Assembly: GCA_905178155.1 (NCBI GenBank) | Contig: CAJINV010000026.1 | Location: forward strand, 340,497 to 404,496 | DNA from: Amoebophrya sp. A120 | Lineage: Eukaryota; Protista; Dinoflagellata | Length of the DNA: 64,000 bases | Direction: 5' to 3' | Part shown: positions 26,315-59,545 of the stretch, one piece after another | Position numbering within the stretch: position 1 is the first letter of the stretch | Layout of the letters: each line of letters starts with the position of its first letter | The notes under the pieces: model-generated | Database searches by the model: none | What the model was told of the DNA's origin: nothing | Seen by the model: the letters and a program-made list of their open reading frames with translations, nothing else | Position numbers and translations under genes: made by a program

Positions 26315-28956
26315 CTAAGTCTCATAATCGATCTTCGTGGGAACAGAAACTGAATAGCGTTCCGGATTATCGGCCAGGATGCTTGGAAGTGGCCTCGGCT
26401 TCCGTCCCGGGAGGTATTTGCCAAACATTCCAGTATTCTTCAGTCGTTTCGCGTGAAGGCTTCTCCAATCCCACTGGAACTGATCGTACGACCAGCGAGA
26501 GTTCTTCCCGTTGGAGCCGGCTCGCCACTTTTGAGCGAATTTTCGAAACATTTTTCGGAAAAATGGGTGCCATGTGTCATCTAGAGGATCCGTCCGCACA
26601 AACGCGTTTCTGTAGGACATCGGCTCCGGCTTCAGCTCGGGGCTGAGACAGTATCCTGGAAAAAATAACGTGAAGTATAAATAAACTTTGTCCAAGAATT
26701 GGAAACAATACAGTCATTCTATAATTCAGCATACTGGAAGAATTGGAGCTCTGCGTCTGGCGAAATGAAGTGAAGCTGATAAAGCACGAGCGCAACTGCA
26801 TTCATTTCAGAACATGAGCACAATGAATTTCCACTGAACAAGCCATCGCATTTCGAGTGCGAAAAAGCAGTACCAAGCTTGACTGGGAACCGCGGCTGGT
26901 CGTAAATCGCATGGTAGTTTTGGAAAAGTAGCTCGGTTGCCGTAGCCAAGCGGCACCTGGCATCGAGAATCCGCCGGCCCCGCCGGTTACGAGCCATGTC
27001 CACAGGGGCCGCAAAATCCGCTGGTGCCAGGGAGAATGCATGCGCCTTTGGCGGATTCCACGTCAAAACCCACTTGCGTTTTTCATCTTTTTCCCCTCGT
27101 TTCGTGGCGCCATCCTTTTCCTTCCGTCTCTTGCTCGGGGTTCGGGCATTCAAACGTGCGGGCGATACTTCTTCGTGAAAAAAGTCGAGGACTTCGCGAA
27201 AAAACGCCCTGTCGCTTTTATGGCAACCCTTTCTGAGTTTATCGGAATCGTAGTCAGAGCGAATGGAGATGGCAAGATCGCCCACGGATTCATACACGCG
27301 CGCGGGACTGCACATTCCCCTAGCCATTGTCATCAAAAATCGTACCTGAGGTAGGTTCAGAAAGCAATTTCCTTTGACTTTGACTACGGAAAAATGAAGT
27401 CATAGATTCTGAAGACGGCCTTCGCGATCCCCTATAATGGAATACCGTCATACATCACTTCAGCTTCAGCGCAAGCTGGCGCTTCTACAGGATCCACCAA
27501 TGCGGCGCAAGCGTACAGACGAAAGCGATAACATTATACCACAAAATAATCGTGCTCGTGATCTTCAGGTTGTTCAGGATGCAAGCAAAATTTTGTTGAC
27601 TACGCTGCGGCAGCTGCGGAAATTCGTTCCAATGCCTTCATATATTTACATAGAGTGGCTGGGGCTACTACAAATAAATCTCAACGTGGCTTCTGCTTTT
27701 CCTTCTCGTCAAAGACGAGTAGTAGAAGCAAACTAGCTGTTAAACCAAAATGTAGCCACGCCAGTATCTCTTGTCTTTCCAAACAAATAAACAGCATCTT
27801 TCAATACGCTCCAGTCTGTTTCCGCCGGCTCCACTCGTTTTCCGCCCTCTTCTTGCGGTCTCTCGACTTCCGCTTGAAATTTCTCCAAGTAGTCTGCCCC
27901 CATGTCTACCATCGTGTTCCAGTAGTCCCGCGGCTTCTTCGTCCCAACTCGCTCGCGTAGAATCTCCAGCCACAGGTCCTCGCAGCTTTCCGTGCGGTTT
28001 TCCAGCTTGCTGTCGTGTCTGTATTGCTCCCACGAAGCAGCTTTCACGCTGTTGTTCTCGCTTGCATTAGATATGGACGGCGCAGCACCGCGCTCTTCTT
28101 GCTCAACATCGTCCGTGTGCTTTTTACTCGTCTGCAGCACAGCAACCGCTTCTTTCGGGGAGAGAAAGCTCAAAATACCGTCTTTTTCGTTTAAGAGCGA
28201 AGTTCTCGTAGAATTTCCTGACAGCAGAAGGCCCCGCTCCCGGAGGGTCGGGTAACCGAGCAAACCTGTGTTGCTCAGATGGTTCGAAGCCTTGTGCCGT
28301 TTCTGAGCTATCGTTCGAGAGGCCGCATCATCACCAGATGATGAGTCCCTTGCACCCTCATCCCCGCCCACGGGTTTTTCTGTTCTTGGCATCACTGCAT
28401 CTGATACGCCTTCTACAGGTGATGTAGATTCGCTGCTCGTCGAAAAATCATGGCTTTTTGATGACGATGAGAGAATTTCGGAGGTGTCTGGCCCGGGTAT
28501 CACAGTAACGAAACTATTTTCAGCAGCGCGGCCCTGCTTCGGCCCACCAGTGCTGCAGGAGCCAGGGCTGCTCGTAGTCTCAGCTTGGCTGTGTCCGCTT
28601 TCTGGGCTGTGTCCTGCATTGCTTTGCTCCGGACCCACTGTTTTTTTTCGCAGTTCAGTTCGCCGTTCCTCCCCGCCGCGTTCCGCAGCGGGTCCCGCAA
28701 CTGCACCTGCAGCCGTGTCCTGCTTCGGCCTCCTCCGCCGCGAGCAGGTCTTTCGTAGTATGGTGTCTCGCACGGTGACAAAAAAATGCCTGCCCGCAGA
28801 ATGTGGCTTTGCCGTAGCACCATCAGATGAATGTGGAAGGACTGCGCCTGTCCCGGCCAGTTGTTCAGAAGCCACGGCTGCCGCTCTCGCTGCCGTAATT
28901 TCCAACGCAAGTAGACAATTGGAAAACAGCAATACAAGTGGTGGACGAAAACGCAT
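26315..28956 (-). CDS. Predicted secreted protein: signal peptide, Ser-rich linker, F-box-like motif and 'SCEDL' domain (paralog A)
   Basis: ORFs 27733-28956 (MRFRPPLVLLFSNCLLALEITAARAAAVA...ILSFLSPKEAVAVLQTSKK...SCEDLWLEILRERVG), 26719-27336 and 26315-26695 are collinear with paralogs B, C and D; AG acceptor at ~27346. Confidence 0.75.
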
Positions 28957-35660: not shown

Positions 35661-35802
35661 GATGGTTGCGATTGCTGGTGGTGCAACACTGTTCCTGCAA
35701 ATCCTTCACTACAAATGCAACGCAACACCAGTCAAGACCTGCTTACGCCTGCAAAGGCTAAAACAATGACATGCGCAGCTGCAGTACAAATCAATAGGAG
35801 TG

Positions 35803-36528: not shown

Positions 36529-36737
36529 TTCAGCTATTTTTCTCCGTGAGCTTTTAACTATTTGAAAAAAATAATCTATGCACCTGCTCTGAGAGACAGC
36601 AACGCCTATTTTATAGTTGCAAGTGCGATGCCGCCTACTTATGTTCTAGCCCTGTCATTTCGATCTCCGCTAAAATAATACGGAAAGATTGATGGTTGAA
36701 ATTAATCGCACCACTTGCCGATGAAGATGAGGGAGTT

Positions 36738-37772
36738 TCAGAAACCATGTATACCAGTGATGCCCGCTGGCATGGCGCATCGTGCTGCGGCTTCTCGCAT
36801 ACGCTCTGCTACTGTGAAGACATCGAGAAGGTCCACCCCTCGCATTGGAGTGTCTTCCACAACAACGGTTGAAGCAACACGGCCATCGCGAGGTCTCGTG
36901 CGTCTCTGCCGTTCCTCCTCTTCACCGGAGCCTGTCGAAACCCCGTGATACATGACATCGAGAAGGCGGCAGTGGCGCGTGCGCTTGCCCTGTAAGGATC
37001 CACGGTCTGCGACGGGGATTCCAATCAACAAGTTTTCACCCCACTGGCGGCCTGTAAATTTCACCGATTTTTCAGGAGAATTGCAAACAAGCATCACGTC
37101 CCGTTGCATGTGTATGAAAATCATGAGCAAGATCAAATGCCCCTTGTGTAACAAGAGAAGCTACTCGTTTATCAAGCAAGTGTCCCTATATGCGCTTTTA
37201 TTTCACAGAATGTATGAAAATCAAGAATAAAAAACAACATAAATACTTCTCACGCAGGTCGCTAGAAGTGCAGTCTGCTCGCTTTCAACGAATATGCTCT
37301 GTCTTGCACCCGAAGCGAAGCCGAAGATCAGCTCGTGGCATTGTGTCAGAGTCTCTTTCCAACGGTCTATACGGCGACCGCCCTGCGTCTGCTGAAGATC
37401 CTTAAATACCATGGCGAATACATCTTGCATCTTGACTCGCGATCTGCGCGCAACGAATTCGTCCACGCCAACCTTCAAGTTCGCTAGCTGTGGTCCTAGT
37501 GTCGTAATGAAGTGGAGCATAATATCATCTGCGTCATCTTCCGACAGAGCGGACATGAGCAGCTCCGCCTTCATTCCTTCAAACGCTCTGAGCTTCACGT
37601 CACAGTGTCCTTCCACGTCTTCGGCGCATTTTAGATCCGACCGCGCCTTACGTATCCATGGTGCTGTAAGTGGTCGCCCTTCGGCACCTTGGCTCACTGC
37701 CGAACCCACGCGTGCACGTACTGCCAGTACAGGCGCGGAGAAAAAAATGAGTCCCACAGTGGCACCCAACAT
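36738..37772 (-). CDS. Predicted secreted helical protein, probably multi-exon
   Basis: ORF 37221-37772 starts with a signal-like MLGATVGLIFFSAPVLA; the downstream ORF 36738-37154 is on the same strand. Confidence 0.5.
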
Positions 37773-39442: not shown

Positions 39443-41794
39443 CTAAGCGCTGTCGTAAGTAATCGCCGTGGGTATGGTTACCAAAAACTTTTCCGGGTTT
39501 GACGCAAGCTGCTTCGGAAGTGGGTTGGTTTTGCTGTAGCCTTGGTAATAGAAGTGCGTCTGCGGAAGGTGTCTCGCTTGTTCGGTACGCCAATCCCACT
39601 GGAATTGGTTGTATGACCAACGAGTATTGACACCGTCGGAACCCTTCCGCCACCTTTGCGCATATCTACGGAACATCTTGCGAAAAGACGTGTACCAGCC
39701 CGCGTCAACCTTGTATTGCCTCTCGACCTCGGGAAGCCCGTCAAAATAGTCATCTGCTTCACGCTCCGTCATTCCATCTGGCGGAGCTTTTAGGCAGTAA
39801 CCTAGATTTTTGTTTGCAAGTCATATCTTGTTCGGACGGGGGGAGGTACGGGCCATCAGCGAGAGATTGCGCTCACTGCCAAGCGGCAATCGCCCCACGT
39901 GTAAAGAAGCATCGACCAGAATCTAGGAGTTGACCTTTTTCACAGCAAACGAGCGCTGCAAAGCCATAAGGGCGAACAAGAAATCAAAAAAGCATAGGAG
40001 GTGCTTCCACATAAAATTTTAAGTCGATATTACATATCAAGCCTGCGTCGATTACAAATTGAAAACGAATCATCTCTTGATACCATGCTTCACCAAGTAG
40101 TTCCAAGTATCGTAAGTTTGAGTGTGTCTCTGGAAGAGAAGCTCGGTCGCCATTGCCAAGCGGCATCTACTGTCCAAACGGTCGCGATAAAGATTGTTCT
40201 GGCGCGCATTTTGTGCGGCTCTAATTCCGAACGCGTACCGGGTCGATGGATTCCAGACGACGACTTTTTTCTGATTGTTCCCCCCACTAACAGTTGCCTG
40301 CGGCTGCTCTTGCGCAAGTGACATAGGTCCGGATGCTGCATCTGCAACGCCCTCGTGAAAGAAATCTAACACCTCACGAAAGAAGTCTCTGTCTGCAGCG
40401 TGACATCCATGCCGAAGGTTTTGCGGACCGTATCTGCTTCGCAGGTTGCCCTTAACGTTGTCCGTAAAACCATGCCACGTTGCAGGGTTGCAGGTTTCCG
40501 CCGCCATCGTCATCAGAAGGAGGACCTAGGATGGCGTGGATGATTTCAAGTCAAGAAAACGCCGTACCAAAGAAGAAGCCAGAGACGAGGCGCTTCAACC
40601 CTTATGTATGAAACGAAATGAAATCTATCGTCGTGTGATGTAGCTATGTGTGATGAGAAGTAATTCACTGAGCACCATAAAACGCATTTAATTATTTACG
40701 CTCCACTCCGTTTGGCTTGGCGGCTCCCTCTTGTTGTCCGGGAATTCCACGACGCGTTGAAATTTCCGGAGGAAATCGAAGCCCCCGTCTGTCTCTTGGT
40801 TCCAGTAGTAGTTCGGTTTTCGCTGGCCAACTCTTTCTCGCAGCACCTCGAGAAATAAATCTTCGCAGCTCTCCGTGCGTGCTTCCACCATTCGGTTTTT
40901 CTGGTCTTGAGCAATAGCAGCGGTTGCCGCGGCTGCACCCAGCGCGTCTTTTTGCGAGTGCAATTTACTCACCTGCAGTAGGGAAGCCGTATCTTTTGGT
41001 GAAAGGAAGCTCAAAATGCCGTCGCTGTGGTTCAACAGACTGTCCTTTGTTGCCGCCAGCATCAACCCGTCTTCCAAACTTCGGATGTCATCCAGCAGGC
41101 GTCCCGCTGTGAGGCCGGGAACTTGACCTTTCGCTGAATCCTCCTGTGTCCCTGATCTTGGTGTGCAAGTGTCCGCGCTGCAACTTTCTTTGTTCTTCCC
41201 GACGCGATCGGCGGTTAGCGTTACTTGGCTCTCTAAGCCCACAGTGGTTGCTGCAAGCGATGTCGTCGTACCAGTCGAGTGATCTACCCCTGGAACCTGC
41301 CGCAGCGGCTTCTGAACAATCTGCTCCCGCCGGCGAGCACTGGGACCTGGTTGTGTGCCAAAGAATGTCGTTGCGAAAGAAGGTGCACATTGTCGAGAAC
41401 ATCATGATCAAAAAAATTGTAGAAGGCCCTTCTGCTAACTACTTAAGCACAAAACCCGAAGTTGTGGCGCAGACAAACTGTGGCCTAGACGAACTGAAGC
41501 CTCATGATCATTATGCGACAAAACCACAGAAAAATCGACTGCACCACTTCCGTTGGTTGATTTTCTGTTGTGGTCGGAGCACTCGTGCCTGTCAATAATT
41601 TTTTCCGCACGAAGCAGCCCCTTCCCGCGGCCTGTTTTCCTCGCATACCTTCGATGCTCGTTCGCAGGAACCGTAGTTGCAGCGATGCGTGTGGGAGTCG
41701 CGACGACCGGAGCCTTTTGAGGTACTGTCTCACTGGCAAGTCCACCCTGAACCAGTTGCGACAGCAGCGTCCATGCCAGGTGGTGGAGTCGCAT
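39443..41794 (-). CDS. Predicted secreted protein: signal-like N-terminus, F-box-like motif and 'SCEDL' domain (paralog B)
   Basis: MRLHHLAWTLLSQLVQGGLA (41794); ILSFLSPKDTASLLQVSKLH...SCEDLFLEVLRERVGQRKPNYYWN (40688-41242); GCHAADRDFFREVLDFFHE...RCRLAMATELLFQ (40070-40513); RWSYNQFQWDWR (39443-39772). Confidence 0.72.
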
Positions 41795-42885
41795 TTTGGA
41801 GCTGCAATGCTACATGTACTTGTAGCTTGTGCACGGTATTATTTTCTGCAACCAAGCACGAAAAGTCGGAAAAAATATATCAGGGAGATTGCTACACCGG
41901 AATCATCGTAGTTGAGAATCAGAGTACCGACATGGTTTGATCAGTTGTTAAATATCAGACGTTGCACCGTCCGGCGTGCACCCCACTGAAGGAAGAATAA
42001 AACGAAAAAAAAAATTTGCTATATATTGTACAAGTATGTATGAAAGACCACTGGGAGAACGGTGTATTCTTATTGGGTTCAAGACAAAACGAAAATAGAT
42101 GAGTATCTTACAGAAAAATGAATCTAAATCTACCCCACTTTTATGAGTCGCACTACCTGGTGTGTGTCTGACATGGGATAAGTTTGACAAAGGTATTAAA
42201 TCAACATACCGAAGATGACAGGATATCCACACGTAGAGCCAGGAGCTAAGTAGCCAACTCTCGTGTTTGTATGATAATGTCGCTGGAGAAGTCATGTTTT
42301 AACTATTAACTTGCGTCTTCAGGATCGTGAAAATTGTCATTCATTGGGCATAATATGTAACAAAAATAATGCGGCAAAAATAAATTATCAAAATTGATCA
42401 GGACACGCTACCAGTGATTCACTTTTCAAATGGAACATTCCAGATCAATGTAGAATGCCAGCTGCTGGATTCAATAGACATGAAGAAAAACCGCTGAAGC
42501 CGCTCTTTGTTTGGTACTACTCTCATCTAGAGCTGTTGGCTTGCTGAGTAGATACGGAAGATCAGAATCCTTTTTCTCCGCCTTTTGCGCCTTTTGTTGC
42601 AAATAGCCCTCAGCTTCGGATTTGCTGATCGTGGTCTCAAGGATATCGAGGCTCGCCTCGTGCCCCTGCGTCGAACAACTGCAATCACACACACACACAC
42701 ACACAGAAAGAGAGAGACGGTTTACATGATACAACTCATATCAGACTTGATTCACGTAAGTACAGTACAAGGATGATTGAGCAGTGGGCGGCAAAAGTCC
42801 TCATGTGCGCCGCACTGGTCTTCATCTCCCGTTGAGTCTACATGCCTTCGCGCTGCAAAAGAAGCGACGGACTCACCAGCAATCT

Positions 42886-45800
42886 TCACGTGGCAGGCGA
42901 ATCCGCCTCCGAACCTTCCATACGTATCGGCTTGAGGTGCGTCCAAAGCGGATGGAAGGTTTCCATCAGAGGCGGCTCGAGCTCCCTTGGCAGAAAATTC
43001 ATGTATATGTCGTTGATAGGATGGCCCGTGAGATGATGGCGCTCGGCGTTAAAGTACAGCCTGGCATGGTCGCTTCGAATTCTGCGGAATATGGCCCACC
43101 ACTGCATGCTGAGCCACGTCCAGCGAAAGTGGCGATAACTCCACTCCGGCCCAGCACCGGTAGATCGGGTGCGCCAAAATGCCGCGCGTTTGAAAAAATC
43201 CAATTGAAATTTGTGATGCCACTCTGGCGGGACGGGCGACTGCGTGTCCGGGGTGCGGTAGACCCTACCGAGGACGGCTTCCGGCCACATTTCGTTCAAC
43301 TCGCTGCGAGGCTTCGTATTCAGGCAGTACCCTATAATTGGGAGTTGTTGTACATCCAAAATGTATGCCTTCTTTGTCTGTCTATCACATATCTTCATGT
43401 TGTTGACCATCATCTTTTTCGTTGATGGGTTGAAGTCAATGTTAGGGATCGCCATCGTCCTTAAAAACTGCAATTTGGCCGTCATGCGACAGCGGCACTG
43501 CAGAAGTCCGCACGGAATTTTAAATACAAAAAAAGATAAATGGCATTTTTCTGTACCGTAGGGAACGTAAAAGTTCTCCGCGCCGTGACCAGACACTCGT
43601 GGCGAAGCTTGGAACAGATACTCTGCCGCCATTCCGATACGGCATCGGCTCTCCCGTGTCTTCTGGAAATCCAACGCGGTTATGAAACGACACAACGAAA
43701 GAACCATACCTCGCAGTCCGTGAAGGCAGGTTTGCTGCTCTTTTTCGAATGATGTTGAAGATGTCTACAGTACAAACATACTTTGGCAGTTATAGTTCGC
43801 AGAGGCTACCACTAGACCGTCTTGGTTTGGCGGTAGCTGGTGCACTCGTCTATCAGATACTACTTCACCCAAAAGTGTTAGTGCTTTGGCACGCAGGCTG
43901 GCTGGGCAACCCGCCTTCTCAACATCAAGCCGCCCGCTCCCGACACGGACTCCAAGGATGTTCTTTTTTTTTACGTCTCATATTGTCGTCATGCGCATTG
44001 TAAGTGGCACCAACGCGGCGGATCGGATCATCCCACACGACGACCTTGCAGCCATTATCCCCCCTTTGCTGTTCGGCACAGTTACCGTCGTGGTTAGCTG
44101 TGCGAGACCCGTTCCTGACGGACTCGTGAAAGAACTTCCACACCTCAGTGAAAAAGCTCTTGTCACTCTGAGAACAACCTGCGTGCAGACGCTCCGAGCT
44201 ATACTGGGTCACTGCAGGTTTCAAATCGTACCGAAGAGCGGACGTTTGTACTACATCGGCATCGGCGTAGCAATACGGCATCAAAGCCAGAATCGTCGAG
44301 ATCTGTTGCAAATTCGAAAACACCTTTAGAATGCTGCCTTAATTGAGAATGCACTCCAGATAAGACGCACTATATGAAACTGTAATAAGGTGGTGACTGT
44401 TTGGGTCCATTTTCTGAGACCTGGATGGCCCTGGTCACGGGGAAGCCTAGGGTATCGGCCACAAAGATACCTCAGTAGCGCCGGCTACGGGTGAGCTGCT
44501 GTACATTGCTCGTAACTTATATGTTCGAATCGTCAACAAGCTTCTCGAGTAGCAATCATAGTCACCGAGACGAAACCACAAGTCAGATAGATACTTCCAT
44601 TCAATAATTGCCCATGCTTTCATGCAGCATTGAAATTTTGAGGATGAATGGACAAAATAATTCAAGAGCAACTATACCGTCCACTTGTCGCTGCTAAGCA
44701 TTCCCAAAGGCGGCCCCTGGCGGTCTTGAAGCTTCATGGTTAGCGTTCCCCAATGGTCTTACGCGGTACAGTTCAAAAATGTCTTTCGCTGCATCGCCAG
44801 CACCGAAGCAATGCAGAAGTACTAACTGGCGAAAGTTGTAAGTAAGCACTTTCTTGTGCCAGTTGCTGATTCTGTTTCTGATTGGCATTCGCTTGCAACA
44901 AAAATCATATAGAGTCAATACGCACCACTATGTACAAAAATATGAATCTTCACTACGAAGCCTGGGCTTTGCCCTTTTACGTAACCCATAATACCACTTT
45001 ACGTCGCAAACGCGCTACCTCAAAAAACAATGCGGCCATTCGTGGTGTCCACTGGATCGAATTCCCGCAGTTCTTAGTCGAGGCACCAGGACACTTGTAA
45101 ATGCAAAGGTGCTATATCCTTATGCGAGAGCGAGACTTTTTTGCGTGCACATATGACCCAGATCAACTCGGGGGTTCCAGAAGTCCTTGGGCAGTAATTG
45201 TGCCGCGGCTTTTTGGCCCGCCGCGCCATGCCGCAGCTGCTCGAGTAGAACTTCCACAAAGAGATCTTCACAACTGACCTCCGTCGTTTGGCGGTCTTCC
45301 AGGGACGCCACCTGCAGCCCCTCGGCGACATCGAGAAATGAAAGGTCCGCGTGCTCTTCGACATCGCCTATGCGTTCTTCATCATCAGCTGCATCCGAAG
45401 CACCTGGTCCCGTATCTCGGATTGCCGGAGAATTTTGCTGGTTGTGCCCCGCAACCACCTCCCACAGTGGGTCATCTGTAGGAGGTTCGTAGTCGCTCTG
45501 TGCGTCCGACGAATCAGCATCATCATAAGCCGCTTCGTGCTCGATATCTTGTACGAAGGCTTCCGGCCTCACATCGGTGCCTGGACGGATCTCGAGCTGC
45601 CCTAATGGCATCACGGGCGGCAGGCGCGGGGGTGCTGCGCTTGTATCCGTATCTGTTCCAGGAAAAGCCAAGGCGCCCGAGAGGGAGCTAGAGCTGCCTC
45701 CACCGCAAGCGGTTGTTCCGGAAGTTGGAGTGCCGCTCCTCTCCAATGCTGTCTTTTCGCCACCGCCGGCGTCCTGTGCTGCCGCACCGGGCGGCGGTGG

Positions 45801-48800
45801 GTTTCCGCCGGTCGGGTCTGCAGCACCAGCAGCTCCCTCTGCTGTAACATCTGGAGTCAATGCCGGAGGTTCAACAGGACCCGCAATTCTGAAATGCTGC
45901 AGTTGCAGCTCGTGCTCTTGCTGGTTTTCGCCAGTCGGTGCTGCCCCAGAACTTCTTCCTGTTGAATTCAGATCTGAGGCGCCACCTGAAGATCCGCGAG
46001 TTTCAATACCGCCGCCATTTTGTTTCGGCGTCCGTTTCTGATCACTGTTCCCTGTGCCTGAAGCAGCTTGTGGCTGCACTCTGAGACCGCCATCGTGACG
46101 CGGATTTGGCGGCGTTGCATAGTCCGAATCTGAATCTGAATCCGATAAAGGGTCTTCCTCGTCACCTAGTACCACATGAATTGGCTCGAAAGGTAGTTGA
46201 TCGAAAATTTTTTTTTGCTCGTCGCTAAATCTTCTCGGATCAAAATCTGGATACATGTGTATGTCGTTGCGCCCCGGGCGATCGAAGAACATCCTCTGAC
46301 CATCGGTGCGGAAGAGAACTGGTATTGCCCACCACTGGTTCATCAGCCACCGATATCGGAAATGCTGATAGCTCCACTCAGGCCCGATCCCGGTGGACCG
46401 TGCGCGCCAAAAATCAGCTCTCTTGTGAAAGTCGATTTGGAACTTTGAATGCCAATCTGCCGGCACCGGTGAGTCCGCTGACGGTGTATTGAAAAACCTA
46501 GCGACTTCGAGCTCGGGCCAGTGCTTTTGCAGATCCTTCTTTGGGCTTGTGTTTAGGCAGTATCCTGTTTAGATGAGAAAAAGAAAAGTCCATGGAACGA
46601 TACCAAGAAAGACGTATACGTCGTTACCCAGTAGCACTATCACTGGCATTCGAGCAAATATAGCACATCAAGCAGGAGTTTGAAAAAAGATACACGGTCA
46701 CATGTACTAAAACTATTTACAAGCGCAGAAAAAAATGATAAAAAGGCCCGCACATATTGCAATGACGAACCTCGGCCAACAAGATGATACCGTAAGGAAC
46801 GTAGAAAAAGGTGGCCGTATAGCAAGAAACGGTACTCGACGCTTGAAAAAGGTACTCAGCAACCATTCCCACGCGGCACCGTTGCTCTCGGATCTTTCCG
46901 TCCCAGGAGCGGCGTATGGAATTTCGCAAAAGACATGCTTCGTCAGCGAAATGCGTCCATCGGCGCCACTCGTTCGGCCGAATAGCTGTATGGATCCCAT
47001 CTCTCGTACTATCAAACCCGTGAGAACAAGAGCAATTGAGGATCTATAAACCGACCTGCCGGTCGGGATAAAAAAAAACAAAAAATGCTGGTCGGGATAA
47101 AAAACAACACGCTACAAGCAAGTCGACCAAAGCCGATCGAGTCAAGAACGCACTTTCGATAGAGTGAGTAGATCTTTTGCATTTGATACCAGCTGTCTCG
47201 AGGTCGGGACCGCTTGCGGCACTTCCAAAGAACCCTTGCCTTGATGGATCATCCCACACTACAACCTTCAACATGTCTTCCGGGCGCTGGCCATCCACAA
47301 GAGTTGTGCTGTCACCTCGTCTAACCCTGTCATCTGTCGCTGAGGTATGCACAGGCTCATGGAAAAAATCCCAGACAGCAGAAAAGAAGTTCTTATCACT
47401 ACGTGCACAGCCCGCGCTCAACCGGTCTGAGGTGTAGTGCAACACCGCTGGCTTCACAAGGCTTCTATAAAGGTCTCGCACAACCCCGACACCAGTATAG
47501 CAATACGGCATCAAGGCCATGATTGTTGCAACCTGTAAAAGTTGAATTTTGTGGAAAGAAAATTTTAGTTCTCTATGCCCCCGGACCGAACGTGGGACCA
47601 AAATACATGGTCAGAAAAATACTGATAGAAGCACGATCTACTCATTGCCGTTGCAGTTGTGTGTGTCCTTTCTCTGTTGCAATTGAGGTCAAGAGCAAGA
47701 CAGAAATGCACACCAACCACACGCGATACCTTCCATGTACTGCCGTCGAGCGTATTCGAAGGCAAAGGCGGCCGATGTTGAGTCGACCTCGACAGTATTT
47801 CTCTTACGTGCCCGATAAGATCGTAGAGTATGCAGAGGAGAAACTGCCCTCGTCGCCATGCTCTGTAGCCACAAATGCAAAGACCCTATGAATTCACTTC
47901 CATGAAGCCAACCAAGCTCTCGCCATCCAGCTCAACTCCCCAGTAAACATGGGAAAGCCTGAACAATCTTGAAAAAAAATGTTCGACGTCGATGGAAAAC
48001 ATGCAAAGAGAGTGTGAAATACGAGTATGGTAGGACAAGATTCTTCTCTCTCCATATGACCTTGATCTACATCAGTATTCCAGAAATCTTTTGGCTTGTA
48101 ACCCGACATCGCTCCGTTATTCACAGTTTGCAGCTTCTCTTCGAGAAATTCCACAAACAGGTCCTCACAGCTCACCGTCTCCGTTTGCCGCTCCCCCAGT
48201 GACGCCACCTGTAACTCGGCTAGCCTCGTTGGCGGAGGGCGTATCGGTGGACTTCCACTGTCAGTTGCTGCGCCAGGAATAGTGACAATGGAAGAGGATG
48301 AAGCGCTAGAGCTGCCTCCACCAGAAGCGGTACTTCCGGGAGTTGGGGTGCCGGTCCGCTCAAATGTCGCTTTTGCGCCACTGCCGCCGTCCCGCGCTGC
48401 CGCACCTGGCTGCGGTGGGTTTCCGCCGGTCGGGGCTGCAGCACCAGCAGCTCCTCCTGATGTAACATCGGACGGCACACCTCCTGATCCTGTACTTCCG
48501 CGTCTTTCGGGACTCGCTGTGCGAAATGAGCTTCGTGAAATCGAACCTGGAGGGCTCAGACTTCGTGAGCGCGGTGTCGCACTTTGCTCGCCTCTGAATA
48601 CGCTTTCAGACACGCCACTTTGTGATGCTGGGCCGCTTGCTCCAAGAACACCAGTTCCCTCTTGCGCTGTAGGTTCGGCACCATCGCTGCTGCCACCATC
48701 CTGGGGCCGACGGGGCGAACTCGTCGTACTGGCACTAGCGGAAGATAAACTACCTTCGCGACGACCTTGCTGCTGTTCCGGCGGGTTTTGATCCCCGTTC

Positions 48801-51800
48801 ACTGTGTCTGAAGCAGGAACCCGAGCAAGCTGATCCGCAGCGCCGTCATGGCTCAGATTCGACGCTGAAGCGGAATGACCGGGATCGCTAACGCTACTGC
48901 CCGTACTCCCTGTTGCCGGCGGTTCAGTTCCAGCACTGCCCAAATCGATAGTACCTCCAGTGGAGGGCGGTTGTTGAGAATCACCAGCACCTGCTCGCGT
49001 TTCAGTTCGCGAAGATAGTTCCCTTTGCTGTTCCTCCATCTGTGGAGCTGAGCTGGCAGCTGCAGGGCTGTTCTCGTCTTGTTGCGCCTGACGAGAAGCT
49101 TCATCAGTCTGCGCACCTTCGTGTTCGCTGCCTCCAGGCGTTTGGCGTGCTGATTGGTTTGCGTCGCTGCTTGTTGTTTCGTGCGCTCCGGGGGCACTTG
49201 CAACATCTGCCCCGGCACCTCCCACAGGAGATGATGACGCACCAGACAGGGCAGCCGATGCTGGGTCAGCGGCAGGTGTTGCTTGACCTGCTTGAGCGTC
49301 CGGGAGGACCGATGCAGCTGTACCTGATGAAGGATTGGCTGCACTCCGTTGAAGAGGAGCTGCCGGCTGAGCCGGCGCCACAGCAGCAGGAACCACCACT
49401 GCTGGCGTACCAGCGGAAGCAACAGCAGGACCCTGTGCAGCGGAAGAGGAGACAGCCGGCCCTGGCGCCGGTCCTGCTGCACCACCAGGGGTCGGAGCTG
49501 CGGGTTTTGGCTTTGGTTTCGCCGGCGCTAGAAACTCCGGGGCGTAAGCGGGTCCTGGGGGTAACAAGGTCGACAGCACTGACGAGGGCGAGCTCTGAGT
49601 AGGAGGAGAAAGCGGTTGGAGGTGCTGCGGAGGTGGAGCTGTTGTGTCTGCGTGCCCACCTCCCTGAGGATCATCGTTGCCGAGGGCTGTTGGTCGGCAG
49701 CTAGGGTTTCCTCCACGTGGATCACCACCGCTACCACCACCTCCATCCCCATTGAAAATTCTTGTCGGGACCAAGATATTCGGCTTATACCCGCCGCCAA
49801 ACGGATTATACGAATCACCGCCCCCAGACCCCAGCTCTGCTTTTTGTTTGTTCCCCTCGCTAACATTGCCCATATGCACCGCCAAGCCAGTAGCGCCAGC
49901 GAGAAGACAAACGCCGACGATGGTGATGATGATGGTCGAAAGGGAAGAGGCCAAAAAAGCGGCACAGGGGCCCGCGGAGGATGTTGACGATGAGGAGGGG
50001 TCCTCTATCAGGGTGTCAAATTTGTCTTGCGAAAGGTCGTCAGCATTTCCACGTGCAAATAAACTTGGCGTCGTCCGCGTCGTGTCTCTTTGCGCTTCCT
50101 CGTCGAAAGTCAGTGTCGCAGATACCGAGCATGCGGCTTTTTTCCTGGAAGAAGCAAAGTCTCCTCCTGTGTCATCTTCCACAGTCTGCCGCTGCTGACG
50201 TGACAGAGAGGAATTGTCGGCTCTTTCCCTTTCAGGAGGTTCCTGAGCATTTATCTCATCCATCTCCTCCTCAGAGGATGACACCAGCTCTGGCTCGTGC
50301 TCTTCTGGCGGTTCGTTTCCACAATCTCGCTTAGTAGCGTTTTTAAACATTTTCTCCCCTTCGCAAGCCGACTTCCCGTCGGCTTTCTGCATTCGATCCG
50401 CATCGCCGCCGTGATCTTCATCCTGCGCAGCGCCGTCGTCCTGTCGTCGTTTCAAGAGCTCCACTTGTTCCTCACCACCGGTTGTAGTGCCGCCGAGAGC
50501 AGTCGAGCTGTAGGAGTAGCTCTCTTGTTTCGCCAAAAGCGGTAAAAACGCCGTTTGATCTATGTATTCCTCTTCGTAAATGTCCGACAGCCGGCGGCCC
50601 TTCCATTTCGTCGTCTTCCCCTTCATGTCTTCCTCGTTGACCAGATTTTTCGGCGTTTTCAGTAGCAGCTTTTGCTGTCTCTTCTTGGTCGTGGTTCCTC
50701 CACGACCTACATCGCCTGGCGGCAAATTCGCAAAGTCATTCTGAAGATCATCATCTCCCGGCGTCTCCAAATACTTCAGCACCGTCTGCGCGTCCCACCG
50801 CCTTTCCCACCGCCAGCGCAGTGTGACTTGCAGTAATGATACCAGATGGCCGAAGAGCGCCGCGTCTTGCTCTTCCCACCTGCGGGATCTCGAATACAGA
50901 ATCCGCACCCGGGAATCCGCCACGGCGAACTGCGCCCGCATCCCGCAGCCCTCTAAATGCTCGTACGGCGTATCAAATGTAAAAATGTCTGGGTCTGGAA
51001 GATTGCCAGGTTTGTCAGGCACATTTTGCATGACTCCTGATGTCTGTAATGCAAGCCCTAGCATCACAGATTTTGTGAGGGCTTCCTGATGCCTATACCG
51101 AATGACAAATGCTCTTTCCGTGTAGCAAAACTTGGACTCTCTTATTTGCTGCTCATGCAATACAGATTTTTTTAGAATCCAAAATCAGCATGACAAGTTG
51201 GATTCTTCCAGACCCAGACATTTTTACAGTTGATACGGCGCACGCCCGTACAGCAATTGGTAGAGGATGATCCCCAGGGCCCAAATATCCTGAGGAAAAA
51301 CGTACCCACACCAGAGTTGTAATGCAGATTTGCAAAGACAGGAAGACTTGTAATGCGCGTCCCCATGAGAGCCATTTCCAGTCGTGTTTTGGATTTTGTG
51401 ATGCTGTGAACAGGATGAGCAGCTGGATTTGTGATGCGGCTGCACTTGCTAACCTGCACTACACTGCAGAGTGCAACTTGTCATGCGTGACTCACAAAAC
51501 TCCTAGGTTTGTGTTGCAAAATCCCCATCCTGACCTTGGTGTGGGTACGTTTTTACTCAGGATACCAAACATCAGCCGCCGGCCGCATCTTCAAACTCGC
51601 CGACCCCTCGTCCGGTTGGTAGAACGCCTCTGGCGGCATGTAGCGGGGCGTGCCGCACTGGCGGTCGCGGGAAACGTGGGTGATCCCCTCATCCTTGTTG
51701 ATCCCCCTCGCGAGGCCGAAGTCAGAGACCTTCACGATGTTGCCCACGATGAGGAAATTCGCGGGCTTGAGGTCAAAGTGGATCAACCCGAGACTGTGGA

Positions 51801-54800
51801 TGGCCGCGACGCCCGCGACCATGTCGCGCCAGAGGTTGCGGATGTCGTAGATGGAAAAGATTTCGTAGTTTCTCCGGAGAAAGGAGTGCAGGTTGGGTAT
51901 CGGAGGGGAAAGGAGGTGCTTTGGTTGTTGACACAGTTCCAATGGAGGGGGTATTTTCATGTCATGCCATCATGTGGCACAAGTACAACACTGGCAGTGA
52001 TGAATTACATGCGCTTGTTGCGGCTGCACGACTCCTACGAGGAAATATGCACAAGCTTCTTGCCGCACGCATCAAGCGCGTCATCCGTATCAGAGAAACT
52101 ATCTCTTTAAAACAAACCAACGCAACCCTCTCCATCCCATACCACAGTCCGCGAATTCCAGCAAAATGTGGATCACCAAATCTTTTGGAAAAAATTTCGC
52201 TTCGCCGATCATCTTCACTACCCGCAACTCCTCCGCATTGTGTTTACCATTCTGGGTAGTTCCGGCATTCGCTGCGCGATTTTTGTCCCGCAAAGCCCGC
52301 AGCCAGTTGACCTCCATGGCGAACGAGCGCATTTGCCTCGCGTCCCGAGCGTAGACGACTTTGAGAGCGTAGCGGGTAACGGATAGCTGAGAAGCTTGCT
52401 CCTTGTTTCGACGGGCACTGCTGCTTGTTCCATTGTGCTGACCACTTCGCGACGCGCCGTCATGGTTGGAGTTATAGGCGCCACGACTTCCCGAGGTGGT
52501 AGTAGTTGATCCTGTATCTCCCACACAGGTTCGCAGATCCACGCACTCGAACACCTCCGCCGACCCGCCCTTCCCGATCCGCTTCACAACTTCGAGCAAT
52601 AAAGTCGGCTTGTTGAAGTCCACGTGATGGTTGTCAACCACCTGTTCGCCCATGCAGATGACCATGCCGGGGCCAACGCGGGCAGTGGCGGTCACAGCGA
52701 TGTTTTTCCGCTGGATAAAGGCAGCCGTGGAGAGTAGGGAGTCGTTTTCTTTGTACGAATATCAACTGCAAAAGTGTCTGGGTCTGGAAGGATGCGAACT
52801 TGTGATGCGGATTCTGGAACAGGTAAAAATCTGTATTGCGTGGTCAGCAAAAGGCACCCGAATTTTGTCTCCAGAAGAGGGCACTTGTCATGCGGAATAG
52901 GCATGGAGAAGCCTCCACAGAGTTTGTCTTGCTCTGTGTGCATTCCAGACCTTTTCGTAGATGTAGAAAATGCATGACAAATGTCTGATTTCTTCCAGAC
53001 CCAGACATTTTTGCAATCCATAACGAAGTCCGGCAGTCCTCATCGTTGAAATACTCCGGTAGGTCGCTCGGTGAATTGAGAAAAGGGGCGTTGTGGCGCC
53101 CGTAGACGGGGATCGTGCTGCAGCCCGCGGAGGGGGGATGTAGATGGTCTTTTTGAGGGGAAAAACCATTCGCCACTTCTGCGTTCGCAGGACACGTCAC
53201 TTCCACATCGGGGAGATCGGCGCTGGGTCCACTAGCATGCTCCCGGAGAAGATCGGTGTCCTTCTGGACGTCTTTGCCATCAGGCACAGGAGAAGTATCG
53301 ACCTTTTCCGCGCAGCGTGGTGATATCGGCGCAGAATCTTCCGGGGCGACTGGCGCGCTGTTGCGGTTGTCGGCCTTGATGTCGTGGCTGCACCCTCCAG
53401 AGCTGGTAGTGTCACGAGGATTTCTGATATGAAAACCGCGACGTCCATAATTCTCCGCTTCAGCTACAGGCTGAGCCTCTTCTTGATTCTGGTGACGCAC
53501 TGACTCCACGTTTCGCTGTAGCTCGTTCTTACCGTTTGATATGCCAACCACAGCAACCTTTGGCAAATCCGCCTGGTAGACGAAGTCTTGCAGTCCTTGA
53601 GGCTGCTGGTCGTTTTGGCCAGCATTTTGGTGTCGCTCCTGCGGTGCGGCGGGCTGTGTGTCATCGTTTTCGCAGTCGGCATTGCTTTCGAAACTGGTTT
53701 CTCTGTTTTCCAGCCGCCGTGTGGCTGTGCGGGAGTTCTTGTGCTTGTTGTCGCGATAGGCATCAGTGAGGCCCGCATGGTCCTCAACATCATGTCTGAC
53801 CCTGGGAGCAGCCACGGAATAAGATCTCTCGGAGGTGGTCTCTCTGTTCGGATTGTAGGACGAAAATTGGTCAAGGTCATCTCGTGTCGCCGCAGGCCGT
53901 ATTTCCACTTGGCCGCGGCCAGGGCGCCGCGCCGGAGGAACTCCACCACCTACATCGCTTCTTATTATCACATCATCCTCAATCGTGCTTGTCGCTGCCG
54001 GTCTCCTGGCGTCGTTGTGCTCCTGGTAGTACGAGCTTCCATAATTACCGGCGGAGGACAGAGTGGTGTTCACTGTGCCGTTATCAAGTGCAAAAATGTC
54101 TGGGTCTGGAAACTTGTGATGCAACTCCGTGAACAGTAAGTGCTCTGTAATTGGTCGCCACGCATGACAACTTTTTTCGTGCTTGTGCGGTGCGTATTTC
54201 GCATGAGAAGCTGCGCTTTTGCATGACAGGCAAGAGGACCTCTTGGTGGCCACGCAATACAGAGTGCAGAGTCATGCCAGACTAGCATGACAATCTTCCA
54301 GACCCATACATTTTTGCATTTCATAACCGTCGTACGACGTCGCGTTTCGTTCACTAGCGCGAGGGTCACGTGGGCCGCCAACCACATCTCGTGCAGCTCG
54401 TTGCCACTCATACGCTGCCTCTTCTCGAATACCTTCTTCCGGCGAATGTCCCACGCCGGCTCCAGCATTTGCGGCCTGTGCATGACAAACTTTCGGCTCG
54501 AAATCGAATGTGCTCGCAGTATGCAACGCCGACGTTGCTTGCGTGGGAACCGGGGCGACGGGTAAAGGGTAGCTGGGTACGTCATGCTCTTCTTGGACGA
54601 AGCGCGCATGGTTATTTTCGAAGCGTCTATTCGTGTTACCCGGCTCTGCTAAGTCGCGGCCGCCATTAGAACTAGCTCCACATGGAGGCTGTATGCCACC
54701 GTGCGGATCTGGATGGTGAGGGTTCAAATTTTTACATTGGTCAGATGGAATCGCGGGTCGTGCGGGATTGTCGTTGAAATGGTGGCTGCGCCGGTCGCTC

Positions 54801-54802
54801 AT
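42886..54802 (-). CDS. Mps1/TTK-like protein kinase fused via a transmembrane helix and low-complexity stalk to two tandem 'SCEDL' domains (C, D)
   Basis: Kinase motifs IGKGGSAEVF, YALK, MEVNWL, HFDLKPANF, DFGLA, GTPRYMPPE and DVW|ALGIILYQLLYGRAP|YEHL are rebuilt by removing 5 introners. The C-lobe, TM (~49870-49950) and first SCEDL motif lie in one stop-free ORF (50965-47894). Later exons fall at ~47530, ~46900, 46466-45120, ~44300 and ~43660-42886. The start codon is uncertain. Confidence 0.75.
50971..54325. mobile_element. Five introners in the kinase region (50971-51235, 51286-51564, 51898-52141, 52760-53022, 54082-54325)
   Basis: Direct repeats cggcg, ccaaa, one decayed pair, acgaa and gccgt/accgt; removal +5 nt restores conserved kinase subdomains. 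Confidence 0.93.
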
Positions 54803-55903
54803 AGGGTACAGGTCCAGGTTGCGCCACAGTCTGAGGGAACGCCAGTCACTGGCTTTTAGGCAAAAATACAGGGGTGTTGCTCCGTTTGTCGATGTCGATA
54901 TCCTTGGGCGGGTGTTGCTCCATGAACTTATTGTACAACTTTTACTCGAATAAACAAATAGTCTTTATCAACCCTTTTCGGCGGATGAGGTACTACAACT
55001 GCTGCATGCGCAAAAATCCGATCCTCGTGAAGAGGACTGCTCGTCCCGAATGCGTCTTTCAGCCTGTTCTTGCGCCCTTCGGATCTTCTCCACCCGCGAC
55101 TACGAGATTGTAAAAACGCCTTCAGATGAGCAACAAGCTTGTGCTCCGTGCGGGTTTGGCGTTGGCGTCTCCTCGAATTGAAGGTAGATACAGCTGCTCC
55201 ATGCGACGTGTCCGTGGGTTCAATTGTACAAATAAACTCCTTTCTAAAGATGAAAAGTCGCAGAGTTTTTATCTATAAATTTGCGTGCTGCTGAAACTGA
55301 AACCGGTGGGGTGAATGCTGAGTGTCTTACAAAATTTTTGCTGCTCGTCCGGCATCTACTTTTATCATATCAGGAAAAATGAAACGGTTGAGAGTGAAAG
55401 CGGTTCTTTTTCTCTAGATTCATGACCCGTATATCGATAATTAAAACAATGTTGAGAGACCACAAAAGAGCTTCCAAGTTGTGCTAGTCATCATACACTA
55501 AACTCCAGAAACATTGCCGGCTGGCAAAAGCAGTCATCTCTTGGAGGAATAGAATTATCTAGGGCTATGTCTACGTACTGAAACAGTGGTCGCCAATATA
55601 CCGCAACCACAACTGCCCGTGCCTGAAGCGATGTTGTAAATAAAACGATTTTTTTTATTAACACGCTGAGACGATGCCACGACGACGAGAGGCGATCCGA
55701 CAGAACGACTAAATACGATTAGATTTATTTCCATAAAGCGATTTTAATTTCAGGTTGCGAGAAGAAGCACATGATTTTCACAAGCAAGATCAGTTCTGGC
55801 GATGAGAACTCAAAAAGGGTTTTCGATTTTGACTTTTGCGAATTAGAGTTCATCTTGAGAGCCTCGCACTACTAGTGCCATTTCTGCATGTCAAGGTGTG
55901 TAA

Positions 55904-57249
55904 GAGCGAGGTAACAAAATAAAACAAGAGGGCCTCGGGGGACCTCTTGTCCGCCCGGCCGGGTGGACAAGAGGTCCCCCCCTTTCGCTGCCGGAGCGGC
56001 TGGCTCGCAGAAGTCCCCCCCCGCGTCGACGCGTCGGCTCCCAGCGCCGCCGTCGTCGTCCGCCGCTCGCTGGGTGGCGGCTATATGCTTTCCACAAGTG
56101 TATATGGGTACCGCGGTAGTATTTATACAAAATTTACAAACTTGCATAATGCTCGCGCTGTAGTGCGAATTTGTAATGCTGATTTGCTCACTGCGAATTT
56201 GTAATGCTAAAGTGCTGACTATTTGATGCTTTGACATGACATGATAATGCTGATTTGCGAATTTGTAATGCTCTAAAATGCTGATAAATACTACAATCTA
56301 GTGCAGTGGTTTTGGTTGGTGTTGGTTGCGACTTGTGTTGGTTGCGACTTAAGCCGTTGGATTGGATTGGTTGCGACTTAAACCAGACTCGCAACCCGGA
56401 GGGCAAGTCGTAACCTACCGCTGTAGAAGAGGCGCCGCCTCTATCTCTGAAGAAGCCGATGGACATCCAGCAGGTTATTGGAGTAGACCACCCGCTTCTG
56501 TCTCTGTCCAAATACGGGGCCCCGTAATAACAAGCATGGGGGGACAGACGGCAGCACACTGCTGCTGTCGAGGGTGGGCGAGTCTCAGCTGGTGCGTAGA
56601 GATCCGGCATCGCGCTTCGTGGTGGTTTATTCATTTCTGTCCTTTGTATTCTCGTACTGCTTCCAGAAACAGGAGCGCACTCTCCTTCTCCTGAGTGCCA
56701 CACGCAAAAGCCTTGCGCTTAGACTTCTCGAATCACGACGGCACGGCGTGCCCTCATCGAGTCTGGTTTAAGTCGCAACCAATCCAATCCAATCCAACCA
56801 ACCAACACCAACCAACCAAAATGCACTAAGTCGCAACCAACACCAACCAACCAAAACCACTGCACTAGTTTGTATAATCAGCATTTTAGCATTACAAATT
56901 CGCGCAAATCAGCATTACTCTCTATCATGTCATGTCAAAGCATCAAATCAGCACTTTAGCATTACAAATTCGCAGTGAGCATTACAAATTCGCATTACTA
57001 ATAAATGCGCGCAATTTTATTTTTGTATAAATACTACCGCGGTACTTATATACACTTGCGGAAGGCATATAGTCGGCACCCAGCGAGCGGCGGACGACGA
57101 CGGCGGCGGTGGGAGCCGACGCGGCGACGCGGGGGGGGACTTCTGCGAGCCAGCCGCTCCGGCAGCGAAAGGGTGGGACCTCTTGTCCACCCGGCCGGGC
57201 GGACAAGAGGTCCCCCGAGGCCCTCTTGTTTTATTTTGTTACCTCGCTC
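55904..57249. mobile_element. Non-autonomous foldback/MITE-like DNA transposon with ~490-bp inverted arms and TAA TSD (PIF/Harbinger-like)
   Basis: gagcgaggtaacaaaataaaacaagagggcc... at 55904 is mirrored to ...gttacctcgctc at 57249; taa at 55901-55903 and 57250-57252; ~370-bp unique centre with no transposase. Confidence 0.85.
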
Positions 57250-57371
57250 TAATTTCTATAAACTGCCAGCCGGAGATGCACTATGTTGGAAATGGATCAC
57301 GGTGATGAACTATGTTGGAAATGGATTGTATATGCGTATTGTATTTTTATCTTTTGTTCAGTTTTTTTCTG

Positions 57372-59545
57372 CAAATTAGTCGTGCCATGAGGCAAATGCC
57401 CAACAACTGCGGAGGGGTAGCGGAGGGCGTAGACGGCACATGCAGAATCGCAGTGCCGTCCTGGTAGCAGAAGTGTAATGATAGATGGCATCTGCTTTCA
57501 AAAAGTAAGCACTTTGCACTTTTAGTACTATCCGCAGCTAATTCTTGGTCTAATCGACTGCAACTTGCCCTCCGCCCCCCCTCCGCTAGGTGAGTGTCAA
57601 GATGTGATACCATGCTGAAAAGCTTTTTATGCGTTTTTGATTTTGTTTCTCGCTTTTTTTGTCGGTTTCGCAAACTTTTAAAATTCACCATGCTATGAGG
57701 CAAATGCCCAACAACCGCGGAGGGGTAGCGGAGAGTGTAAACGGCACATGCAGAATCGCAGTGCCGTCGGGGTAACAGAAGTTCAATAATAAATGCCATC
57801 TGTTGTCAAAAAGTAATCGCTTTACACTTTTCATACTATCCGGAGCTAATTCTGGGTGTAATCGACTGCAACATGCCCTCCGCCACCCCTCCGCTAGGCG
57901 AGTGTCAAGAGGTGATACCATGCTGACAAGCTTTCTATTCGTTTTTACTGTTGTCTTCCGCTTTTTTTGTCGGTTTTGCAAGTTTTCAAAATTCAGCATG
58001 CTATGAGGAACATGCCCAGCAACTGCGGAGGGGTAGCGGAGGGTGTAGACGGCACATGCAGAATCGCAGTGCCGTCCTGGTAACAGAAGTTTAATAATAA
58101 CTGCCATCTGTTGTCAAAAAGTAAGCACTTTACACTTTTCATACTATCCGCAGCCAATTCTGGGTCTAATCGACTGCAACTTGCCCTCCGCCACCCCTCC
58201 GCTAGGCGAGTGTCAAGAGGTGATACCATGCTGAAAAGCTTTTTATTCGTTTTTTCTTTTGTTTTTCGCTTTTTTTGCCGATTTTGCAAGTTTTCGAAAC
58301 TCATCATGCTATGAGGAACATTCCCAGCAACTGCGGAGGGGTAGCGGAGGGTGTAGACGGCGGATGCAGAATCGCAGTGCCGTCCTGGTAAGAGAAGTTC
58401 AATAATAAATGCCATCTGTTGTCAAAAAGTAAGCACTTTACACTTTTCATACTATCCGCAGCTAATTCTGGGTCTAATCGACTGCAACATGCCCTCCGCC
58501 ACCCCTCCGCTAGGCGAGTTTCAAGAGGTGTTACCATCCTGGAAAGCTTTTTGTGCGTTTTCACTTTTGTTTTTCGCTTTTTTTGTCGATTTTGCAAGTT
58601 TTCAAAATTCAGCATGCTACCAGGAACATGCCCAACAACTGCGGAGGGATAGCGGAGGGTGTAGACGGCACATGCAGAAGAGCAGTGCCATCCTGGTAGC
58701 AGAAGTGTAATAATAAATTGCATCTGCTTTCAAAAAGTAAGCACTTTGCACTTTTAGTACTATCCGCAGCTAGATCTGGGTATAATTGACTGCGACTTGC
58801 CCTCCGCCACCCCTCCGCTAGGCGAGTGCCAAGAGGTGTTACCATGCTGAAAAGCTTTTTATGCGTTTTCACTTTTGTTTTTCGCTTCTTTTGTCGGTTT
58901 TGCAAGTTTTCAAAATTCAGCATGCTATGAGGAACATGCCCAGCAACTGCGGAGGGGTAGCGGAGGGTGTAGACGGCACATGCAGAAGCGCAGTGCCGTC
59001 CTGGTAGCAGAAGTGTAATAATAAATGGCATCTGCTTTCAAAAAGTAAGCACTTTGCACTTTTAGTACTATCCCCAGCTAATTCTGGGTATAATCGACTG
59101 CAACTTGCCCTCCGCCCCCCCTCCGCTAGGCGAGTGTCAAGAGGTGTCACCATGCTGAAAAGCTTTTTATGCGTTTTCACTTTTGTTTTTCGCTTTTTTT
59201 GTCGGTTTTGCAAGTTTTCAAAATTCAGCATGCTATGAGGAACATGCCCAGCAACTGCGGAGGGGTAGCGGAGGGTGTAGACGGCACATGCAGAAGCGCA
59301 GTGCCGTCCTGGTAGCAGAAGTGTAATAATAAATGGCATCTGCTTTCAAAAAGTAAGCACTTTGCACTTTTAGTACTATCCGCAGCTAAATCTGGGTATA
59401 ATCGACTGCAACTTGCCCTCCGCCCCCCCTCCGCTAGCCGAGTGTCAAGACGTGACACAATGCTGAAAAGCTTTTTATGCGTTTTTGCTTTTGTTTCTCG
59501 TTTTTTTTTGTCGGTTTCGCAAACTTTTAAACTTCAGCATGCTAT
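57372..59545. repeat. Tandem satellite, 308-bp unit, 7 copies
   Basis: atgagg(c/a)a..tgccca.caactgcggaggggtagcgg at 57387, 57695 and onward with period 308; ORF ends at 57685, 57993, 58609, 58917 and 59225. Confidence 0.95.

Follow-up and report, generated by a model that had tools for sequence, protein, structure and literature searches.

A candidate type-II membrane kinase with an Mps1-like catalytic domain and two SCEDL domains in Amoebophrya sp. A120

Amoebophrya infects bloom-forming dinoflagellates, and how such a parasite senses and manipulates its host is a question on which the proteins described here may bear. The window analysed comprises 64,000 nucleotides (nt) of the Amoebophrya sp. 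A120 contig CAJINV010000026.1 (positions 340,497 to 404,496 of the forward strand). On its minus strand lies a gene in which an Mps1-like protein kinase is followed by a hydrophobic helix, a long stalk and two copies of a domain that we call SCEDL after one of its conserved blocks. Mps1/TTK is a conserved spindle-checkpoint kinase with its site of action at kinetochores. In Mps1 orthologues, the kinase domain is C-terminal and is accompanied in many lineages by an N-terminal TPR domain (PMC6119859). The locus therefore raises the question of whether kinase, helix and SCEDL domains belong to one protein, and what such a protein would do. Our analysis indicates that the gene is a member of a family of anchored kinases that is real, seems not to have been described before and includes an uncharacterised domain.

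The junction between the kinase and its tail is contained in one exon. A stop-free frame of 1,096 codons occupies 47894-51184 of the minus strand. Within it, exon 6 starts at 50970 and ends at the donor 48060, holding the kinase C-lobe, the acidic linker, the helix, the stalk and the first SCEDL motif without a stop and without any need for splicing. The 969 codons from the C-lobe to the first donor contain on average 36 stops when their bases are shuffled (minimum 20, 300 shuffles), the two alternative frames over 47897-50968 contain 20 and 39, and the linker by itself would carry about 13 stops if it were non-coding. This observation is in line with the first-pass annotation of the locus, which had read the C-lobe as running stop-free through linker, helix and stalk into SCEDL. 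Further downstream, a canonical GT-AG model stays open across SCEDL domain 1 into domain 2, reaching about 2,620 residues at the end of the third exon of domain 2, in keeping with the placement of both domains on the kinase protein. About 1,900 residues lie downstream of the kinase domain, and we estimate the total length at about 2,800 residues.

The introns differ between the two parts of the gene. Those of the SCEDL part are canonical GT-AG introns, whereas the region upstream of exon 6 is interrupted by four inverted-repeat introners and by one intron that starts with GT and has no in-frame AG. When each introner cut is placed at the longest direct repeat, it removes the insert plus exactly 5 nt in all four cases (50971-54325). 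The cuts of 249, 268, 284 and 270 nt fall in phases 0, 1, 2 and 0 and join the exons at every introner, and the joined model contains the full set of catalytic motifs. These four introns share terminal inverted repeats and junction direct repeats and are repeated in the genome, and no difference was seen from the Amoebophrya introners described in PMC7789003. RNA reads of another locus or strain cross such introner ends unspliced.

The helix is the only strong hydrophobic segment in the first 1,807 residues, where no other 19-residue Kyte-Doolittle window exceeds 1.6, and hydropathy reveals no N-terminal signal peptide. Because a signal peptide was not found and a folded kinase precedes the sole helix, the kinase is predicted to be cytosolic. 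The stalk that follows contains 87 Ser, 87 Ala, 83 Gly, 71 Pro and 41 Thr in its 566 residues. Its description as Ser/Pro/Ala/Gly-rich stands, while the accompanying term "mucin-like" is generous, since Ser and Thr together make up 23%; a true mucin stalk is rejected on composition. The same stalk is joined to SCEDL in the annotated A120 paralog P0002, which is 77.5% identical over 560 columns, is annotated as partial and begins about 50 residues past the helix position. In agreement with this shared junction, a type-II single-pass kinase bearing SCEDL domains, as originally proposed, is still the best reading of the gene.

The kinase appears intact, as had been recognised by eye. The Gly loop, the VAIK-type Lys, the alphaC Glu, HFDLKPANF, DFG and MPPE are all present, and Pfam Pkinase matches with an E value of 1.4e-20. 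The best PDB match of the catalytic exon is human TTK (7e-20), followed at some distance by PLK4 as the next family (6.5e-10), and the TTK alignment covers the region from the N-lobe to alphaG. Moreover, TTK is the sole family past the set thresholds for the relatives P0005 (6e-31, threshold 1e-22) and P0013 (1e-30, threshold 1e-17). In a 17-row tree, which omitted the near-duplicates P0012 and P0019 and included no reference Mps1, the window kinase groups with 11 relatives in a single clade (96/95), the nearest being the A25 proteins P0005, P0017 and P0006 (92/89, not starred). With TTK as its closest match, the window kinase probably derives from an Mps1-like kinase. A bacterial, PknB-type origin is rejected, as the best match is TTK and the Amoebophrya clade does not include the PknB-like P0015 and P0016. 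Pfam TPR was not found in the window exons or in 11 relatives, a domain lost in many lineages, and a metagenome scan with P0005 gave 3 matches of 141, all unrelated kinases.

Relatives of the window kinase are found in several Amoebophrya strains. A word-limited search with the catalytic exon among proteins of 178-2,000 residues, a range outside which full-length paralogs fall, returned 12 matches from 228 candidates, namely 10 Amoebophrya proteins and two outside kinases, of which the one checked is PknB-like. Three further Amoebophrya proteins came from a cluster look-up, giving 13 relatives in four strains (A25, AT5.2, Ameob2 and A120); the gene models of A25 and A120 were built with a transcript-based pipeline (PMC7789003). 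Seven of the 13, representing six distinct genes (P0013 and P0019 stem from one gene, represented in two data sets), possess a hydrophobic segment 281-529 residues past the catalytic loop, with hydropathy of 1.79-3.63 and the weakest value in P0018. The other six are labelled partial and terminate upstream of the helix position. P0013 is a complete transcript open reading frame (ORF) with kinase and helix. Homologue searches with the 1,024-residue exon in two length ranges gave no matches and missed even P0002, because low complexity crowded out the matches.

Beyond the helix the family members diverge. P0007 and P0013 have a tail of only 20-25 residues after the helix core, P0006 and P0018 have a stalk, P0011 has a stalk and a RING domain (Pfam E 6e-7, above cut-off), and P0014 has a stalk and an additional region with no Pfam match. 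The window copy ends in stalk and SCEDL, the half that also occurs in P0002. Since kinase and helix are common to relatives in all four strains, the helix anchor predates the SCEDL fusion, the C-terminal module alone being new. The idea of a one-off chimera between a soluble kinase gene and a neighbouring island gene is thus not supported. In the window protein and four stalked relatives, the sequence after the helix has a P/S/T/A/G content of 0.54-0.66, compared with 0.32-0.45 before it, and a lower D/E/K content. In addition, five acidic dileucine motifs (defined as in PMC3743005) occur in the 130 residues preceding the helix across seven proteins, against 1.2 in shuffles (P 0.006). Both features fit a cytosolic position of the kinase side.

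The SCEDL motif occurs four times in the window (48172, 45275, 40870 and 27987) and marks a domain of about 330 residues with the conserved blocks SCEDL, MPYC, FFHE, VVWDDP, RCR-E-LFQ, GYCL and WSY. Two subtypes exist. Domains 1 and 2 of the kinase protein group with P0001-P0003, and the free SCEDL proteins A and B, encoded nearby, belong to subtype II. Domain 2 arose by tandem duplication together with the stalk end. P0004 contains one domain of each subtype, separated by a piece homologous to the window stalk (E 9e-11), and the modules have therefore been shuffled; P0004 and P0002, whose contigs are equally long, are perhaps part of one cluster. The N-terminus of P0004 is Lys/Ala-rich and histone-H1-like by eye. 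All four SCEDL matches in the representative library are A120 proteins, with no homologue found there outside this strain, and none of 599 pattern matches in a metagenome scan was confirmed.

The SCEDL family has no Pfam match, and its PDB profile gave 0 matches. Foldseek (best E 2.5) and VIA-align (best Z 4.2), run with a poor model, gave nothing above threshold, and the best Atlas hit, an ulvan-lyase cluster at 0.86, lies below the 0.9 bar. The mean predicted local distance difference test (pLDDT) is 34 for the single-sequence model and 47 for the alignment-based model, which includes one 22-residue row in the wrong frame. With models of this quality, the null results would not show a new fold.

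Proteins A and B had been put forward as soluble, secreted paralogs of the ectodomain. The shared SCEDL domain bears out the relationship, but both represent the second subtype and the signal peptide of B is weak (best 11-residue hydropathy at the start 1.15, compared with 2.36 in A). A sensor/effector partnership of A and B with the kinase is speculative, its support being limited to shared ancestry and proximity.

The DNA runs suggest that the upstream part of the gene has related copies in the genome. In run X1, contigs match 38500-48148 in one piece with zero differences at depth 42. Above 48148 there are many variant pieces with a summed depth of about 75-780, which peaks over the C-lobe and helix and is smaller in the stalk, and run X2 from the same sample has the same depth shape. 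This points to a number of related copies, similar in kinase and helix and increasingly different toward the C-terminus; contig depth itself is not accepted as a copy number. At two stalk joints the reading frame is preserved in the paralog contigs (net -54 and -6 nt), and among the rows listed (12 of 40 and 12 of 51) most indels in coding sequence have lengths divisible by three, singly or when added up, apart from one single-base row of uncertain reading. Each of the 30 bins of 47400-50960 has related contigs over it in either DNA run, and exchange between paralogs would thus probably leave the architecture unchanged.

Taken together, we tentatively favour, at a little below an even chance, a type-II membrane kinase that signals on clustering at its outer domains. 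The window copy would be expressed as one mRNA and delivered to the cell surface or a secretory compartment, with the Mps1-like kinase likely in the parasite cytoplasm and the stalk and two SCEDL domains across the membrane. Binding at the outer domains may then cluster the kinases and permit trans-autophosphorylation by analogy with Mps1, for which induced dimerisation is sufficient for activation (PMC6119859). Historically, an Mps1-like kinase would have acquired a tail anchor early in Amoebophrya, after which the family would have expanded and the A120 lineage gained stalks and exchangeable end modules.

Several observations weigh against this proposal. The window helix has no basic residues on its kinase side by eye, and a RING finger is hard to reconcile with an extracellular sensor. 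In the free SCEDL proteins P0001 and P0004 a signal peptide is missing and the tails are SR-rich or Lys-rich, which suggests a cytosolic or nuclear domain. The dileucine test was post hoc. The motif lies near the helix in three of the seven proteins (P 0.07), a 300-residue span gives P 0.10, and the window protein has one motif, 179 residues upstream. Over-fusion is evident in the AT5.2 genome model P0019, which continues for 707 residues beyond the helix, compared with 25 in the transcript P0013. At the locus itself, none of the DNA contigs listed crosses the whole multi-copy stretch above 48148, and the window's own base is absent from the contigs at 48195, 49695, 49699 and 50816, making a paralog mosaic in the assembly possible. 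Finally, a transcript of the window copy was not seen in RNA runs X3-X5, which are uninformative in this respect: of their 146, 4 and 424 reads, almost every one matches only in part, at an introner end, and has foreign sequence beside it.

Of the alternatives, the best surviving one regards the C-terminal modules as host-directed tools that the parasite would present on its surface or shed into the cytosol or nucleus of the host. A and B would be their secreted forms, and the kinase would control trafficking or release. A RING domain requires cytosolic or nuclear ubiquitin enzymes, and the one in P0011 lies past the helix. In addition, an F-box-like segment is found just ahead of SCEDL in B (E 0.032), and a similar motif is visible by eye in A and domain 2. 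A combines its signal-like start with basic clusters that we take to resemble nuclear localisation signals. The trophonts grow in the host nucleus (PMC9478091), and ubiquitin-pathway genes are up early in infection (PMC6176090). On the other hand, the F-box match scores 14.5 bits, below the curated Pfam cut-off of 24.3, in one of four segments; domain 1 has no such motif, and neither B nor the post-helix part of the window protein contains a basic cluster. A profile search found no PDB match at E up to 10, and a classical F-box protein is rejected on the bit score. We consider this explanation unlikely; what probability it has comes from the RING tail, the hint of an F-box and the life inside the host nucleus.

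It is less likely still that the gene gives two products or is an artefact: the kinase-helix protein would terminate shortly past the helix, a separate mRNA would encode the stalk-SCEDL part, or pieces of different paralogs would have been put together in the assembly. The disagreement between P0013 and P0019, the partial P0002 starting past the helix position, and the end of the single-copy contig at 48148 with rising depth above would agree with this. Indeed, fusions in the family can be annotation errors. The tail of P0019 includes an F5/8-type carbohydrate-binding domain absent from the transcript P0013, likely an annotation error, or else perhaps a longer isoform. However, the P0019 join needed splicing and the window join does not, the C-lobe leads to SCEDL through a linker free of the stops expected in non-coding sequence, every bin of the junction region is covered by related contigs, and P0011 and P0014 follow the same plan. 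Runs X6 and X7, which we guess to be RNA, hold paralog pieces, among them a contig of 911 nt that covers 48060-48905, shows 46 differences and ends at the predicted donor; its two loose ends read by eye as P0002 residues. They come from one study as contigs only, their lack of cover over kinase and helix is uninformative, and they are not used as evidence.

A third explanation sees in the family the Mps1 proper of Amoebophrya, held by its tail anchor in the nuclear envelope or endoplasmic reticulum for closed mitosis, with stalks and SCEDL as luminal extras of expanded copies; it would fit the short tails of P0007 and P0013, the closed dinoflagellate mitosis with its extranuclear spindle (PMC11453091) and the lack of a soluble or TPR-bearing Mps1 among the 12 matches from 228 candidates, but it is improbable: the word-limited search may miss a divergent soluble Mps1, the many copies with long variable tails are left unexplained, as are the dileucine motifs, and Plasmodium is described as having no Mps1 altogether (PMC13439184), so that myzozoans do not have to retain the mitotic role.

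How does the favoured membrane kinase compare with known systems? Its kinase domain is closest to that of Mps1/TTK. The protein differs from these kinases in the helix and the long region after the kinase, which depart from a soluble form with a C-terminal kinase, in the catalytic loop (HFD instead of HSD), in the TPR not found and in its many copies. The layout of N-terminal kinase, one helix (by hydropathy) and C-terminal module resembles that of bacterial eSTKs (serine/threonine kinases of the eukaryotic-like type) such as PknB, PrkC, StkP and the Pkn set of M. tuberculosis. These comprise an N-terminal kinase, a single helix and a variable C-terminal sensor, and are activated by dimerisation and autophosphorylation (PMC4601284). 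The layout, earlier termed "inverted", is so relative to eukaryotic receptors, but it is the usual one in these bacterial enzymes. Unlike them, the window kinase matches TTK and not PknB, and Pfam found no PASTA domain; the likeness is likely convergence.

Tail-anchored eukaryotic kinases, with the kinase first and a C-terminal membrane anchor, include VRK2A and DMPK isoforms, and P0007 and P0013 share this arrangement. VRK2A and DMPK belong to other kinase families and, to our knowledge, have neither a large luminal stalk nor an exchangeable end module. Teneurins and polymorphic toxins likewise combine a membrane anchor, a long spacer and a variable terminal module, that is, a type-II plan with exchangeable C-terminal cargo, which is also predicted for the anchored-kinase family. 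No sequence or fold similarity to them was found, and we know of none with an N-terminal kinase. Membrane-anchored Mps1-like kinases were not found described in the full-text literature searched (subscription journals lay outside its scope). The gene identifiers and Mps1/TTK were not found in the supplements searched of PMC7789003 and PMC6176090, whose larger tables may list them.

If the favoured reading is true, the family would represent an independent eukaryotic invention of receptor kinases in bacterial topology, with every complete relative found being membrane-anchored, amplified and equipped with different outer modules. A bolder version holds that Mps1 was turned into polymorphic, bacterial-style membrane kinases whose exchangeable outer modules touch or enter the host cytosol and nucleus, with secreted A and B as free counterparts; this is rather doubtful, but if true it would amount to a receptor-effector system that uses a new domain, and host range would have a candidate determinant in it. 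One rhoptry-like protein, ROP14, is recognised in Amoebophrya according to PMC6176090. The family provides testable candidates that differ between strains, as well as an uncharacterised domain.

Table 1 Features of the kinase gene and of the free SCEDL genes, in window coordinates.
Feature	Position	Strand	Remarks
Exon 1	54331..54802	-	likely ATG at 54802 (predicted start); disordered N-terminus; no signal peptide
Inverted-repeat introner 1	54082..54325	-	insert 244, cut 249
Exon 2, low-complexity N-terminal extension	53028..54081	-	edges uncertain by a few bases
Introner 2	52760..53022	-	insert 263, cut 268
Exon 3, N-lobe of the kinase with Gly loop, Lys and alphaC Glu, two insertions	52143..52759	-	
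Intron 3	51894..52142	-	GT start, no in-frame AG; 3' edge predicted by homology
Exon 4, catalytic loop HFDLKPANF, DFG, MPPE	51570..51893	-	
Introner 4	51286..51564	-	insert 279, cut 284
Exon 5, alphaF helix	51241..51285	-	
Introner 5	50971..51235	-	insert 265, cut 270
Kinase C-lobe end, start of exon 6	50770..50970	-	51% identity to A25 P0006 over 67 residues
Acidic linker, about 275 residues, predicted cytosolic	49943..50769	-	
Single predicted transmembrane helix	49871..49942	-	hydropathy 2.49 (19-residue Kyte-Doolittle); weak alignment to A120 P0011 helix, E 0.005
Ser/Ala/Gly/Pro-rich stalk, 566 residues	48173..49870	-	77.5% identity to P0002
SCEDL domain 1, five exons	46180..48172	-	donors 48060, 47729, 47189, 46790; tblastn with P0001; open GT-AG model
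Second linker with duplicated stalk-end piece	45276..46179	-	45687-45851 vs 48305-48469, 85% nt
SCEDL domain 2, tandem duplicate	42886..45275	-	a/b, b/c and d/e intron positions match domain 1; stop at 42886
Gene B, free SCEDL, subtype II	39443..41794	-	weak signal peptide, sub-threshold F-box-like segment
Gene A, free SCEDL, subtype II	26315..28956	-	signal-peptide-like start, basic clusters

The surroundings of the kinase gene (Table 1) are rich in repeats. Just upstream of it, at 55903-57250, lies a palindromic element built of inverted repeats nested in one another (arms of 230 nt at 96% complementarity; inner arms of 34-35 nt, 100%), which may belong to the amplified unit, contig depth being raised up to 56000. 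It adjoins seven tandem copies of a 308-nt unit at 57373-59520, and a 113-nt tandem repeat, possibly satellite DNA, occupies 63626-64000 and runs off the window end. On the other side, the minus strand of 32462-37784 contains introner-free genes with no Pfam match, namely a 754-residue ORF whose C-terminal half is rich in Cys and a small gene that has a signal-like start at 37772. Together with A and B, these genes make up an orphan-gene island. A small introner-interrupted gene on the minus strand at 61780-62920 contains ankyrin-like motifs recognised by eye.

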